A stretch of 63,524 nucleotides of DNA, filler included, from Diploschistes diacapsis (taxonomy: Eukaryota): assembly GCA_023645945.1 (NCBI GenBank). It is 23 parts of 23 records of this genome, joined end to end, with 100 filler letters (N's around TTAATTAATTAA, not from the genome) between each part and the next. Parts side by side here need not be neighbours in the genome. Positions count along the whole stretch, not along the records: positions 19,063 to 38,023 come from JALAIB010000389.1; 22 more parts are not named here. One strand, given 5' to 3'. Below, in pieces: positions 11,598 to 40,457 of this stretch (its first letter is position 1; every line of letters begins with the position of its first letter). Below the pieces are notes generated by a model that made no database searches, was not told the origin of the DNA, and saw nothing but the letters and a program-made list of their open reading frames with translations. A program made the position numbers and the translations under genes.

Positions 11598-14500
11598 ATG
11601 TGTTCCTTACCATTGATCATCGTCAATGGCCTCATATCTAGTGTTTTGGTTTCTGGTGCTTCCGTTCAAAGCTCAGTATTTGGCACGGCCACTGTCGACA
11701 GCCTCCCGACAGCTGGCGCAACCGCCACCCTAGCTCCGAGCGGGACCAACACGCAGACATACGAACCCGAGTTTACTATTCCTACTAACGCCGATAACGG
11801 GGCAATACTCATCCCGAATATTGTTGACCCGCAAGCTGCCAATGCCCAGAGCGTGTGTCCCGGCTATAAGGCCTCGGACGTGCAGAGAACACAATATGGC
11901 CTGACCGCCTCCCTCTCGCTGGCTGGCAAAGCGTGCAGCCTGTACGGGAATGACGTGGGCCAGCTCACCTTGACGGTGGAATACCAGTCCTCAGATCGGC
12001 TCTCTGTAAAGATCGAAGCTTCGAACCTCAGTGCACAGAATTCGTCTTGGTTCATCCTTCCCGAATACCTTGTGCCAAGTCCTCAGCTAGATTCTGGCGC
12101 CAGCTCTACTATCATAGACAACGATCTTGGCTTCTTCTGGGAGAATGATCCGACTTTCTCGTTTTCGGTAATTCGAAAGTCGACAGGGGACGTCCTCTTT
12201 TCCACGGGAGGAACTCAGCTCGTCTACGAAGACCAATTCATTGAGTTTGTCAGCTCACTTCCCCAAAACTACAATCTCTATGGTCTCGGTGAAACTATCC
12301 ACTCCTTCCGCCTCGGAAACAACCTAACGAGGGTGGGTCGAGACATGAGCTCTCCGTATTGGCTAACTAGAATAGACCATCTACGCTGCGGACACTGGTG
12401 ATACTATAGATGCCAACATCTACGGCTCTCACCCAGTATATGTAGATACCCGTTATTACGACCAAGACAGCTCAGGAAGTTTGATGCTTGTTACAAGCAA
12501 TATCTCTGATCCAACCAAGGAATATGTCTCGTACTCTCATGGACTCTACAATCGCAACTCTCACGGGCAAGAAATACTCCTCAACCCCACAAACATAACA
12601 TGGCGAGCTCTCGGTGGAAGCATTGATCTGTACTTTTACGCAGGCCCTACCGCAAAAGATGTTGCTGCAACGCATCAACAAGCCGCCACAGGCTTACCAG
12701 CAATGCAAAAGTATCATACTTTTGGGTTTCACCAGTGTCGTTGGGGATATCGTAACTGGTCACAGGTGGCGGACGTCGTAGCCAACTTTGCCAAATTCCA
12801 GATTCCCCTGGAGCATATCTGGACAGACATTGATTATATGTATCAATATCGAGGTATGTAGGTTCGATATTCCTGGAAGAGAGGCCACTGATGGGTCCCA
12901 GATTTCCAAAACGACCCAATCAGATTCGGATACGACGAGGGTCGAGCCTTGATTTCTAACCTCACCGCCAATGGGCAGCATTACATCCCCATCGTCGACT
13001 CTGCCATTTATGTCCCAAACCCCCAAAACGCTAGCGACGCTTATGCTCCCTTCAATGATGGGAACGAGACGAATTCTTTCATGCTGAATCCCGATGGCTC
13101 CCTCTACGTTGGCGACGTGTGGCCCGGCTACACTGTCTTTCCCGACTGGCTCCCTGGTAGCGGAGCAGGAGAGTGGTGGATCAACCAGATGACCCAGTGG
13201 CATAGAAATGTCAACTGGAGTGGAGTCTGGATCGACATGTCCGAGGTTTCGTCCTTTTGTGTCGGAAGCTGCGGATCGAACAATCTTAGCTTGAACCCTG
13301 CACACCCGCCATTCAGCCTTCCCGGAGAGCCAGGGAGCTTGGTTCTGACATACCCTGAGGGGTTCAACCTCACCAACGCTACCGAAGCCGCTTCAGCCTC
13401 CTCCGCAGCTGCATCACAGGCTTCTGCCAACGCCGCAACAGCGCCCCCGATTCCAACCGCAACTACAACTCCCGACTACCTGCGGACTACGCCTACCCCT
13501 GGCGTTCGGAATGTGAACCATCCCCCGTATGTTATCAACAACGTGCAGGGCGACCTGGCGGTGCACGCCGTCTCGCCTAATGCCACTCACCACAACGGTA
13601 TCCAGGAATACGATGTCCACAACCTTTTCGGTCACCAGATCCTCAACGCAACATACAATGCCTTGCTCAACGTCTTCCCTGGCAAGCGACCTTTCATCAT
13701 TGGCAGGTCGACTTTCGTCGGATCGGGTCAGTGGGCCGGTCATTGGGGAGGAGACAACACCGCTCTGTTCGAGTACATGTACTTTAGTATCCCCCAGGCC
13801 TTGTCGTTCTCGCTGTTCGGTATCCCAATGTTTGGTGTCGATACTTGCGGCTTCAATGGCAACTCGGACGAGGAGCTCTGCAACCGATGGATGCAGCTTT
13901 CGGCATTCTTCCCGTTCTATCGAAACCACAACGTACTTGCGGCTGTTCCACAAGAGCCGTACGTCTGGTCGTCTGTAATTGAAGCCACCAAGACGGCTAT
14001 GAGCATACGGTTTCAGCTGCTGCCATACATGTACACACTCTTCTACCAAGCGCACACCACAGGGTCGACCGTAATGCGGGCCCTGAGCTGGGAATTTCCA
14101 AACGATCCTTCGCTTGCCGGGGCTGACATGCAGTTCTTCCTTGGCCCCGCTATCCTCGTCACTCCCGTGCTTGCGCAGGGCATGACTACGGTGGACGGCG
14201 TCTTCCCTGGAGCGGGCAAGGGCGAGATCTACTACGATTGGTACACCCAGAGTCGAGTCAATGCCAGCGCTGGCCAGAACATGACGATAGATGCCCCGCT
14301 TGGCCACATTCCCGTTTTCGTTCGGGGTGGAAGTGTCCTCCCTATGCAACAACCGGCAATGACGACCACTGCTGCGAGGAAGACTCCATGGAGCGTCCTC
14401 GTCGCCTTGAGCGAGGGGGGTGCAGCAAGCGGTAGCCTTTACCTTGACGATGGGGATAGTCTCAGTCCGCCCGCGATCCTGAATGTCAACGTAAGTGTTT

Positions 14501-14773
14501 CTTAGCTGCATGATATTTGGCTAACTGGGGTAGCTTGCTGCTACTAAGGGCGCCCTGTATGCTTTTGCCATGGGACATTTCAATGATACCAACCCTCTGG
14601 CGAATGTCATCATCCTCGGCGTACAGCAGAGCCCCACGAACGTTACCTTGAACGGCAAGAGCATAACAAAGGGGGTTACGTACAATTCAACCAGCAAAGT
14701 CGCCGTCATTGACGGGCTACAAAGTCTGACTGGTGGTGGAGCTTGGAGCAACGACTGGATATTGAAGTGGTGA
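11598..14773 (+). CDS. Secreted GH31 alpha-glucosidase
   Basis: Signal peptide, QSVCPGYKAS, NLYGLGE, GFHQCRWGY, IWTDIDYM, catalytic WIDMSE, GHWGGDN, GVDTCGF, RWMQLSAFFPFYRNHN; introns 12333-12375, 12854-12901, 14491-14532. Confidence 0.95.
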
Positions 14774-28757: not shown

Positions 28758-30966
28758 TTTTGGAAAGAAGGATGAAGAGGCCCCGAGACAAATCAATGAT
28801 AGAATGCTTTAGTTGGGATAGATATTAAGCAGTCGTATATATATCTATGGACAGATGACTGATACGCATACCAGCTCGGCGATTTTCGGCACGGCGATAC
28901 CGGCTCGGCGATGGCGGCTTAGGTAAAATGCTAGGTCCGAGGGCTCGGGTATAGATAGATGAGGCAGAGCAACAAAGATCAGACACAAAGCTGTAGCCCT
29001 AAGGAACGAAGGGCGATAACTTCTGGTAAGAGAGAGGGGCTGAAGAACGAACATTATGATTATAAGATGGGATTGAGTCAGAAATATCGGGTAATGTGAT
29101 GGCGCGACTTAATCCAGTTTGTCTCAGGAACACTTGGCTGGGCCGCTCCTTCACATATAGTGTGTATCTACCAAGCCGTTTAGCTCACATCTAGTTCCCA
29201 TAATATATATAGCGGCGAGGAACGGTGAGTCGCAGAAAAATCTATTTGTAATATTATCAGGTGATATAAGCGTGTGTGCGCTATTAAAACGACTTGAGAA
29301 AAGCTTAAAAAATTGATGGGGAGCCTAACTTAACGTGTACGCAAAACAATCGTAAGCCCTGCGTAGATGATGCTCCTGAGACAAAGCCGAGAAAGGGCGG
29401 CCTCGAAGACGGTTGGTAAAGGCAAAGGTAAAGACCCGGCTACCCGGGCACTGGCCACTTGCAGCAAGCCCTGGATGCAAAGGCAGATAGGGCTGGCTAC
29501 CCCATTCACCTTATTGAAGATTCTCGGGGAGTCGGGGGTGACATGCACCGAACACACACCGAAGAGAAGTTCGGCAGAGGCTGGAAGAGGCTGGAAATGG
29601 CGTAAAAATAAAATAGCGTGATCTCACGTGCCCACAGTTAAACGCTGCTTACCCAATCACAATACCACAGCTCATAAGTTGTAGCTGAGCTACCAAAGGA
29701 TGAACCATATTAATTGAATACTAATCGATGAATAGGTGAATTTAGAGACCGAGGCTGGAGACACTTACAGAGAAAGAGCTTCATAATGCTGATATATCCA
29801 GATCGGAAGCGTCGCATTTACGGCGATATTGATATCGGATGCATATTACATCATATTGAAAAAGGTATAAAGTTTGATTCCTACGGTTATCCTATCCACA
29901 ATGGAATTAAGCCGATGCTGTCCCCTGTCACGCAAGCTCAACGATGCATAGATATTGCATAAATCCTATAATAACGATTCATCATCCATTATATTACACG
30001 TCACGTTCATATGGGCCGCGTGAATTTCTTGCCCCGACTCGCCGAGAATGTTTGCAATAATAATACCGATCCCGCTCTGGAAGGTATATAGAGGGTGCAA
30101 TCTTCATCAATCTTTCAAGAGTTTCTTTTTTTTTTTTTTAGCCTTTTCTTTTACTTGCTTTTTTCAACTTCACAAATGATTAGCAAGTAGCAAAAAGAGA
30201 TTGAAAATAAACACAAGGAACTTGTTCAAATAGACATGCGAAGCTAGGGCGAGGGTGCTTGGCTGGGGATGGCAATCTGATCAAGTATCGTGAGCTGAGC
30301 GGCTTCACGGTATCCTCGCGAAAAGGAGCAAAAGCTGAAATATGGAAGATGGAGGCACGGTTAGTCAGAAGCAGAGTGCACTATACAGACTCACCACCGA
30401 CGACAATGCCCTACGAAAAGGGTGGTATATGCCGCCGAAAGTGGCGGCAGAATGTATATAGGTTTTCAATACAAAAGTAGTAGTATTTCCTTTTACTCAG
30501 TAACCTTTTTATCTGAGAATCCTTGTTCCATACTCTAATTCCAGAACCCGCTCTAAGCTCATTGACGCCTAAGGGTCTGGTTTCTGGGACCCCTTGCCCT
30601 TGCAAAGCGCAGCAGGGAGTGTGGCCTAAGCGCTAGTGATTTTTCATCCTCTCGCATATGCTCCCTTTACGAACTCCCACGGGCCAGGAAAACCGCAATT
30701 TAACGCGAAAGATGTGTGATGTCAACCGGGTTGATTTTATGGGGTTGTATGGCTCATATAATAGGGGTATTACTAAAAAAAATAGAGCTCAAAAATAGGT
30801 AAATCCCCTCTACCTAGTAAAAAGGTATGCGCGGAGACGCTAGGCGTTGGTTGGTCGATAAGCGAGCCCGAGCAGAGGCCGGGCGCTGATACCGACGCAC
30901 TCGTTAAATCCTGGAAGATAATTTAGTGTGATATATAATCTTCAAAATACTGAATAACACAAAATG

Positions 30967-31097
30967 GGACCTATGGCGCAATGGTAGCGCGTAAGTAATT
31001 GTTTATGTACTGTAATTTCAAATTCTAACGTTAGCCCAGGTCTGATTCCAGGCTTTGAGTTTCCAGAAGGTCACCCGTTCGAATCGGGTTAGGTTCA
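30967..31097 (+). tRNA. tRNA-Trp(CCA) with two introns: 49-nt spliceosomal-type intron (30991-31039) and 10-nt canonical 37/38 intron (31052-31061)
   Basis: Acceptor GGACCTA/TAGGTTC+A; D arm GCGC-AATGGTA-GCGC; anticodon arm TCTGA-TT-CCA-G...T-CCAGA; variable loop AGGTC; T arm ACCCG-TTCGAAT-CGGGT. A box 30974-30984, B box 31077-31085. Spliced length 72 nt. Confidence 0.9.
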
Positions 31098-31098
31098 C

Positions 31099-31105
31099 TT
31101 TTTTT
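31099..31105 (+). terminator. RNA polymerase III terminator (T7) of the tRNA-Trp gene
   Basis: TTTTTTT begins 2 nt after the discriminator base; a T6 run follows. Confidence 0.8.
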
Positions 31106-31508
31106 GGGTTTTTTGGGGGGTTGCACTATCTTCTTATTCTATATTGTGAATGACCTCCGTGCCTCCGTACTTTGTTTTTTGTGTCAAATTTGCCAGTTTC
31201 AAGATACCTGTTTGGATCTACACGAACGCTTTTGCAGGCCTTATTCATTCAAATATATCTCCCAATTCGAAAGGCAAGTAGTTGGTTCCGCGCGGTGGTG
31301 TTGCCCAAGGCTTATACCATCGTGCAACTTTGTTTGGGAAGCTGAGAACAACCATACTTGAGTAAAGAGCCCTTTTGGCAACCATTCTCGCCAACCTATG
31401 GTATGGAGTGTTGATATACAATCTTGTTGCTTCTGGGCTAAAATGGAAGCAGGCTTTATCGCCTTTTTGGTCAACTATTCCTCGAACACGCCATTCAGTA
31501 TATCGAAG

Positions 31509-39576: not shown

Positions 39577-40457
39577 GGTTCTATATTAAAAAAATAAGAA
39601 CTTTTTTAATTTCATATGGGATTACTTCAAACTATTCCTATTAAATAGAATCAAGAACCTTATCAATCGCTCGCTATCAGTATATTAAAACTGGAACTCA
39701 ACAAAACAGGATTTTTATTAATTAGTTCAGAATTTCGAAGCGTACTATACCATACTAGAAGAACAATTAGATAACAAGCTACCGGACATAATGAGGATAT
39801 TAATATTTATAACCAAATTCGTCCAGAATTCTAGTATGAATTTATAAAGGCTTTTTATGATCCTAACAACTTCGACGTATTAATATTACTTGCGATCCGC
39901 TTGGAGAATGTAGGAGGAGGAGCGAAACAATCTTTAACTCGTTATAAAAATGACCTTTTTAGTAGAAATCGAGGGAATACGCGACGTTTAAGATTAAGAA
40001 GACTTTCTTATCGTTTACGAAAAAGAGGTTATCGCGATCGAAATATAAGTTCCGAACAAGGTTTTAGCACGTATAATAATCTCGTAGATATATTTTATTA
40101 TACGTGTTACGAGAAGGGGTATTACGCGAATGATTATTTTTAAAATAATAATTTAAATATTACGCTAGTTATTAACGTAAGAATAATAAGAGATTTAAAA
40201 AATTATCGAAGTCGATATTAAGGTCCGAAAAAGTCGATTCGATCTCGTTAAAAATAGGATTTATCGTTGAAATAATAAGATTACTCGATGGTTATAAGCC
40301 TATAATTATTAAGTTTGACCTCGATACGGGGGTATAATATAATTTTATTAGTAAAAAGTTCGCAGTCGAAAATTAATTGATTCGCTTATTTAACGTAGAA
40401 TTATCGATTCTAAAATGGGTTAATGATTTAAAAGTATATTGTTACGGAGTATATTAA
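39577..40457 (+). mobile_element. RIP-degraded Ty3/gypsy gag-protease fragment
   Basis: Zinc-knuckle relic (YTCYEKGYYAND, about 40100) and aspartic protease LDTG...NFIS (about 40320). Confidence 0.7.

Follow-up and report, generated by a model that had tools for sequence, protein, structure and literature searches.

A tRNA-Trp gene of a lichen-associated ascomycete with a candidate spliceosomal intron in addition to its canonical tRNA intron

Spliceosomal introns occur in transcripts of RNA polymerase II and endonuclease-type introns in tRNAs, and in the textbook view the two are kept apart. The tRNA-Trp(CCA) gene analysed here raises the question of whether both kinds of intron can reside in a single tRNA precursor. 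The gene is located in a stretch of 63,524 nucleotides, filler included, from Diploschistes diacapsis (GenBank assembly GCA_023645945.1), which is called the window below; the part containing the gene comes from record JALAIB010000389.1. A phosphomannose isomerase reading frame in the window matches, with 100% identity, a protein that carries the label of a MAG of D. diacapsis, a lichen fungus. The next match to this frame has 75% identity, and named matches in several classes of Pezizomycotina have about 55–58%. Positions 40001–63524 of the window are sharply AT-rich, with a GC content of 0.27–0.32 compared to 0.47–0.53 before 36 kb, and this block looks like the isochores left by repeat-induced point mutation in filamentous ascomycetes.

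Direct reading of the sequence places the tRNA-Trp(CCA) gene at positions 30967–31097 (+), divided into three exons of 24, 12, and 36 nt. An earlier interpretation of the same DNA, referred to here as the sequence-only reading, had described a 49-nt insert with the signals GTAAGT, TTCTAAC, and CAG within the gene, and both its sequence and its coordinates are exactly as described. The features of the locus are as follows.

30931–30939 (+): TATA-like element ATATATAAT, 28–36 nt upstream of the tRNA 5' end
30967–30990 (+): tRNA-Trp exon 1, GGACCTATGGCGCAATGGTAGCGC, tRNA positions 1–25, acceptor 5' strand and D arm (ARAGORN, Rfam RF00005)
30974–30985 (+): A box TGGCGCAATGGT, within exon 1
30991–31039 (+): spliceosomal-type (GT-AG) insert of 49 nt, between tRNA positions 25 and 26
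30991–30996 (+): 5' splice site of the insert, GTAAGT
31023–31029 (+): branch site of the insert, TTCTAAC, predicted branch A at 31028, 11 nt from the 3' end
31037–31039 (+): 3' end of the insert, CAG
31040–31051 (+): exon 2, tRNA positions 26–37, anticodon stem 5' strand, anticodon CCA, and G37
31052–31061 (+): canonical endonuclease-type tRNA intron of 10 nt, GCTTTGAGTT, at site 37/38 (ARAGORN)
31062–31097 (+): exon 3, tRNA positions 38–73, anticodon stem 3' strand, variable loop, T arm, acceptor 3' strand, and discriminator A
31076–31086 (+): B box CGTTCGAATCG, in the T arm, within exon 3
31099–31105 (+): run of seven T, terminator-like for RNA polymerase III by its presumed function, separated from the discriminator by a single C

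The boundaries of the insert can slide by 0–2 nt because GT is repeated, and the GT-AG rule is satisfied in one register only. Pair 31–39 of the anticodon stem is an A·C mismatch in the window, and the same mismatch is present in all the relatives compared. The TATA-like element may serve as an upstream promoter element for RNA polymerase III, a role that we assume from the Pol III genes of fission yeast. A weak match to snoRNA U18 (3' half; 16.7 bits, E 2.6, gathering threshold 47) in the AT-rich region upstream of the gene (30920–30958, +) is most likely due to chance.

Standard scanners overlook the gene, as had been anticipated. ARAGORN with default settings found no tRNA and Rfam at gathering thresholds no match across the 63.5-kb window, and a permissive Rfam scan of the whole window missed the tRNA-Trp gene and returned one unrelated sub-threshold match. 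When the Rfam scan was targeted to positions 30900–31160 alone, RF00005 was matched with 39.8 bits (E 2.5e-7; gathering cut-off 29 bits) over model positions 1–71 of 71, with a 74-nt unaligned block. After the insert 30991–31039 had been cut out by coordinates, ARAGORN, which is blind to the uncut locus by default, called tRNA-Trp(cca) with a 10-nt intron at 37/38 and a tRNA of 72 nt. Together with the Rfam score, this call confirms the proposal that removal of the insert yields a 72-nt tryptophan cloverleaf. With introns allowed, the call of ARAGORN for the uncut locus was tRNA-Gln(ttg), interrupted by an intron of 57 nt; this candidate was rejected because its anticodon stem is poor and the locus gives a clean tryptophan reading once the insert is removed. 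Since the defaults of both ARAGORN and Rfam miss the gene, an essential tRNA may appear to be missing from the tRNA set of a fungal genome, or genes of this kind may be annotated as pseudogenes.

A search of public sequencing runs returned 20 rows with the stretch or part of it, plus two from the study of the best-matching run, a lichen metagenome (X1); none of these is recorded as RNA. X1 is probably the source of the window itself, and the comparison rests on the runs X2, X3, and X4. The runs X5–X20 contain 0.05–0.08 of the sampled words and X21–X22 almost none; the contig comparison comprises X1–X4, the contigs of which were placed on positions 30600–31400 at 80% likeness. The gene together with its insert is bridged whole by one contig each from X2 (30841–31171), X3 (30903–31102), and X4 (30956–31158). 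No contig joining the exons without the insert was found in X1–X4 at 80% likeness, where X1 gave one record and contigs show presence, not absence. In addition, metagenomes were scanned with a pattern consisting of 16 nt of exon 1, any 30–60 nt, and GTCTGAYTCCA, in which the GT-AG rule was not imposed. The scan, which captures window-like exon sequence with a gap of 30–60 nt, identified two loci, L001 and L002. L002 is syntenic with the window (blastn 89–95%) and contains an insert of 51 nt with GTAAGT...TTCTAAC...CCCAG. The presence of the insert in contigs of three further runs and in one metagenome contig speaks against an assembly artefact.

The inserts of the close relatives differ from that of the window in their interior. 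All three runs share the changes 31030 G>A and 31031 T>C, which are the only ones in X2. X3 has 30999 T>A and 31035 C>T in addition, and X4 has 31002 T>C, 31007 G>A, and 31012 G>C as well as an extra CC following 31017. L002 carries exactly the variants of X4, and therefore the two were counted as one lineage. Because X2, X3, and X4/L002 are all close to the window, they amount to one clade. None of the eight distinct insert changes over X2, X3, and X4 is located in GTAAGT, TTCTAAC, or CAG; within this clade alone, the conservation of the splice signals is marginal, (33/49)^8 or about 0.04 by our arithmetic. The 10-nt intron varies as well, with 31059 G>A in X3 and changes at 31052–31053 in X4/L002, whereas no differences are listed at the 72 exon positions in X2, X3, and X4. 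Taken together, the three runs have 11 distinct changes in 59 intron sites and none in 72 exon sites, which by the same arithmetic has a probability of (59/131)^11, about 1.5e-4. The alignment of window positions 30903–31158 to L002 contains 25 changes in 184 non-exon sites and none in the 72 exon sites (P = 2.7e-5). Thus, X2, X3, X4, and L002 exhibit the pattern for which orthologues were to be inspected: splice signals are kept, the interior of the insert diverges, and the exons are under purifying selection.

Two further peculiarities of the locus became apparent in this comparison. The branch site of the window lies inside a perfect 10-nt palindrome, CTAACGTTAG (31025–31034), whereas X2, X3, X4, and L002 read CTAACACTAG; the palindrome is peculiar to the lineage of the window, since the relatives carry the changes at 31030 and 31031. 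Large insertions and deletions distinguish the relatives immediately 3' of the tRNA gene. About 980 nt of L002 (409–1388) are absent from the window (31158–31193), X4 has loose ends at both 31158 and 31193, and at 31180–31201 of X2 a block of 20 letters is replaced by 152 others.

A second, divergent lineage has the same design of an insert plus a canonical intron in tRNA-Trp. The likeness of L001 to the window is confined to the tRNA part, in which the gene is ordered as GGACCCGTGGCGCAATGGTAGCGCG, an insert of 59 nt, TCTGATTCCAG, an 18-nt intron at 37/38, and the remainder of the tryptophan tRNA. The insert reads GTATGT...TACTCAT...AATAG, and its interior is unrelated to that of the window insert. 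Under the GT-AG rule the insertion site is 26/27 in L001 and 25/26 in the window, one nucleotide apart, and the mature sequence is the same. Given this offset, the inserts of L001 and of the window clade may be non-homologous. A protein search with the 163-aa reading frame of L001 gave two matches, neither of them named. After removal of the inserts, ARAGORN called Trp(cca) in all three sequences (window, L002, and L001), and the RF00005 matches of L002 (39.9 bits) and L001 (33.1 bits) are full-length (1–71 of 71) and above the cut-off, like that of the window. In a three-way alignment of these sequences, 20 of the 21 cloverleaf pairs are kept in all. Relative to the window, both bases of two acceptor-stem pairs are replaced in L001 (U-A by C-G and A-U by G-C), and one T-stem pair is U-G instead of C-G. 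The shuffle control of this alignment is weak with three sequences (55/500), and the slid controls drop to 22–49% paired.

The inserts have the attributes of U2-type spliceosomal introns. A 5' splice site of the form GTRNGT is positioned at the exact boundary, as GTAAGT in the window and L002 and as GTATGT in L001. The branch motif CTRAY, expected approximately 10–35 nt before the 3' end, is represented by TTCTAAC, which is kept in X2, X3, and X4/L002; the TACTCAT of L001 is weaker than the consensus. The 3' YAG is CAG in the window and L002 and TAG in L001. Mononucleotide shuffles of the window insert contained all three signals jointly (GTRNGT at the start, CTNAY 5–35 nt from the end, and a terminal YAG) in one of 300,000 trials, and the corresponding frequencies were 0/300,000 for the insert of L002 and 3/300,000 for that of L001. 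The insert was also said to share its size and signals with mRNA introns of the window, and five ORF-bridging intron candidates agree with this statement: they are 43–49 nt long, compared with the 49 nt of the insert, and their branch A lies 9–10 nt from the 3' end, compared with 11 nt. The sequence-only reading had further argued that the insert can be read through by RNA polymerase III since it lacks a run of four T. The longest T run in the insert is indeed three, but the argument carries no weight, because eight of the nine ORF-bridging mRNA intron candidates of the window lack such a run as well. As a possible introner-like element or other dispersed repeat, the insert was compared with the 63.5-kb window, where it matches one site, namely itself, when up to three mismatches are allowed; within the window it is not a dispersed repeat. 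Close to one of the ORF-bridging intron candidates (43 nt, 14491–14533) there is a sub-threshold match to the HDV-like CPEB3 ribozyme at 14092–14158 (−), with 25.7 bits against a gathering threshold of 35, E 0.015, and model positions 1–78 of 78; it may be due to chance.

The insert might instead be an ectopic tRNA intron that depends for its removal on a ligase and a protein endonuclease, the latter being the tRNA splicing endonuclease with a relaxed motif or some other nuclease, with the GT-AG appearance being incidental. It would then be comparable to introns in the D arm of tRNA genes from red algae and nucleomorphs, and nuclear tRNA genes of Cyanidioschyzon merolae do contain ectopic and multiple introns (PMC3728597; PMC3978253). 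Moreover, if the GT-AG rule is not imposed, the inserts of both lineages can be written at 25/26. Endonuclease-type introns are recognised by two 3-nt bulges separated by a 4-bp helix (bulge-helix-bulge, BHB) or by position 37/38. However, a central helix with four of four pairs was formed in none of the configurations at the insert junctions of the window (0/363), L001 (0/242), or L002 (0/363), and the sites of the inserts are 25/26 or 26/27. The canonical 10-nt intron, in the same test, has a 4/4 helix AUUC/GAGU flanking the cut sites, formed between the anticodon loop and the intron, and is positioned at 37/38. We therefore rejected the BHB reading of the 49-nt insert. Furthermore, the minimum-energy folds of the inserts have no common structure, and it would have to be a coincidence that two unrelated inserts both possess a consensus 5' hexamer, a branch-like motif, and YAG, a combination found at most three times in 300,000 shuffles. 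We regard removal of the insert by a protein endonuclease as quite unlikely. A group I intron, including small degenerate forms, should follow a 5' exon ending in U and itself end in G. When the boundaries are set by GT-AG, the last base of the 5' exon is C in the window and G in L001, and the sole register with a 5' exon ending in T gives an insert ending in T; this candidate was rejected. Retention of the insert in a 132-nt RNA with a function other than that of a tRNA, for example as a tRNA-like regulatory RNA with an extra arm, would give a role to the small hairpin that the first part of the insert forms beside the D arm in the minimum-energy folds of the window and L002. Nevertheless, the whole precursor folds no more stably than its shuffles (z = −0.85), the insert of L001 is unrelated in sequence and length, and retention does not explain why the splice signals are kept, which makes it highly improbable.

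The remaining alternatives concern the transcription of the gene and its fate. RNA polymerase II could transcribe the locus, perhaps from the TATA-like element, after which the spliceosome would remove the insert and RNase P and RNase Z would cut the tRNA out. Such a transcript would be a usual host, as spliceosomal introns normally occur in transcripts of RNA polymerase II (PMC12530127), and the TATA-like 9-mer at −36 to −28 is identical in L002 although the flanking bases differ. On the other hand, the A box, the B box, and the T7 run one base past the discriminator are the standard layout of a Pol III gene. RNA polymerase II is not needed for splicing, because U6 RNA made by RNA polymerase III is spliced in fission yeast (PMC5855946). 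A conserved host transcript is absent from the comparison with L002 and L001, since the downstream context differs in the former and is unrelated in the latter. Transcription by RNA polymerase II is thus unlikely. The gene could also be dead, with an intron-like or mobile sequence lodged in it and intact copies elsewhere supplying the tRNA; this would agree with its being uncalled by standard scanners and with the A·C mismatch in its anticodon stem. The mismatch is, however, common to all the sequences, and the insert is single within the window. Relaxed constraint is contradicted by the unchanged exons of X2 and X3, by the absence of changes in the 72 exon sites of the window and L002 next to 25 in the 184 neighbouring sites, and by the compensatory acceptor-stem changes of L001. 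The exons have been under purifying selection after the insertion, and therefore the gene is not a pseudogene; we consider a dead gene very unlikely.

Based on these comparisons, the gene is, as judged from its sequence, functional, and its 49-nt insert is most likely removed by the spliceosome, splicing being deduced from DNA. Because the layout is kept in related fungi and the tRNA parts are intact, the tRNA probably needs both splicing systems. We assign a probability of about 0.7 to the reading that this nuclear tRNA-Trp(CCA) gene is functional in a lichen-associated ascomycete and that its precursor would contain two different kinds of introns, removed by the spliceosome and then by the endonuclease. 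The suggestion that one pre-tRNA may need both machineries is thereby supported by selection on the exons, by the kept insert, by the second lineage, and by the lack of a BHB motif.

A pathway for the maturation of the tRNA can be proposed. RNA polymerase III would start from the A and B boxes inside the gene, possibly with assistance from the TATA-like element near −30, read through both introns, and end at the T7 run. The spliceosome would then excise the 49-nt insert, with U1 pairing to GUAAGU, U2 to UUCUAAC, and a lariat forming at A31028. This step would join C25 to G26 and produce the predicted junction GGTAGCGC|GTCTGATT. Removal of the insert would restore the hinge where the D arm meets the anticodon arm, and the L-shaped body of the tRNA would arise only then. 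The tRNA splicing endonuclease presumably uses the L-shaped body to find the 37/38 intron, so that the endonuclease and tRNA ligase would remove the 10-nt intron last. The position of the insert, at the hinge that shapes the body read by the endonuclease, makes it plausible that the spliceosome acts first. The 5' splice site abuts the D stem directly, which could hinder the binding of U1. It is possible, at somewhat below even odds, that these fungi have no tRNA-Trp gene other than the interrupted one; every decoding of UGG would then require the action of the spliceosome on a Pol III transcript, followed by that of the endonuclease. In that case, the tRNA would be the first one known to depend on both splicing systems. 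Its design would either predate the split of two divergent ascomycete lineages, with a one-base slide of the site, or have arisen twice at the same hinge. It could tie the capacity for translation to the availability of the spliceosome, as has been proposed for the spliceosomal introns of lichen rDNA.

A tRNA gene with a selected and conserved spliceosomal-type intron would join snRNA and rRNA genes as an exception to the separation of the two intron kinds, and both splicing systems would act on one precursor of approximately 130 nt. As a small testable model, it would allow one to ask how a Pol III transcript that is uncapped and highly structured is engaged by the spliceosome and how introns enter non-coding RNA genes. 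A 2025 paper (PMC12530127) assigns spliceosomal introns and tRNA introns to different classes, each with its own hosts. Spliceosomal introns have been described in genes for U6, U2, U5, and U1 snRNA and for rRNA, and the available part of the 2018 review that lists them does not name tRNA as a host (PMC5855946). A literature search, in which subscription journals were mostly missing, turned up no account of a tRNA gene with a spliceosomal intron, so an earlier description is possible. The insert would be an ectopic spliceosomal intron in a non-mRNA gene, and the tRNA host and the accompanying canonical tRNA intron appear to be new as far as the literature found goes. The precedents named in the sequence-only reading, fungal U6 snRNA and ascomycete rRNA genes, can be found in PMC5855946 and PMC8527467.

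Introns outside 37/38 are known from the tRNA genes of C. merolae, nucleomorphs, and archaea. As in tRNA-Trp, those genes can have two introns, one of them outside 37/38, and are missed by standard scanners. However, red-algal ectopic introns are based on the BHB motif (PMC3978253; PMC3728597), and the algal and archaeal introns are BHB-defined and cut by the endonuclease, whereas the tRNA-Trp insert lacks a BHB and has GT-AG ends, the 5' hexamer, and a branch site. The mRNA-type introns of U6 genes, found in Schizosaccharomyces pombe (Tani and Ohshima 1989) and in many fungi (Canzler et al. 2016; both as cited in PMC5855946), are more similar to the insert. Fungal U6 introns have canonical signals and unrelated sequences (PMC5855946). 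Both U6 and tRNA-Trp are small structured RNAs from Pol III-type host genes, and in both, unrelated introns with canonical signals occupy nearby sites in different lineages. In contrast to U6, the tRNA precursor also bears an endonuclease-type intron. Furthermore, the tRNA is outside the spliceosome, and therefore the idea of reverse splicing into an active-site RNA does not obviously apply. Lichen-forming ascomycetes contain spliceosomal introns in their rDNA (Bhattacharya et al. 2000, cited in PMC8527467), and yeast removed a lichen-type rDNA intron from Pol I transcripts (PMC8527467). These rDNA introns resemble the tRNA-Trp insert as ectopic spliceosomal introns of lichen fungi in genes not transcribed by RNA polymerase II. 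They differ in that their host is an rRNA precursor made by RNA polymerase I from multi-copy rDNA, whereas that of the tRNA-Trp insert would be a Pol III precursor of about 130 nt.
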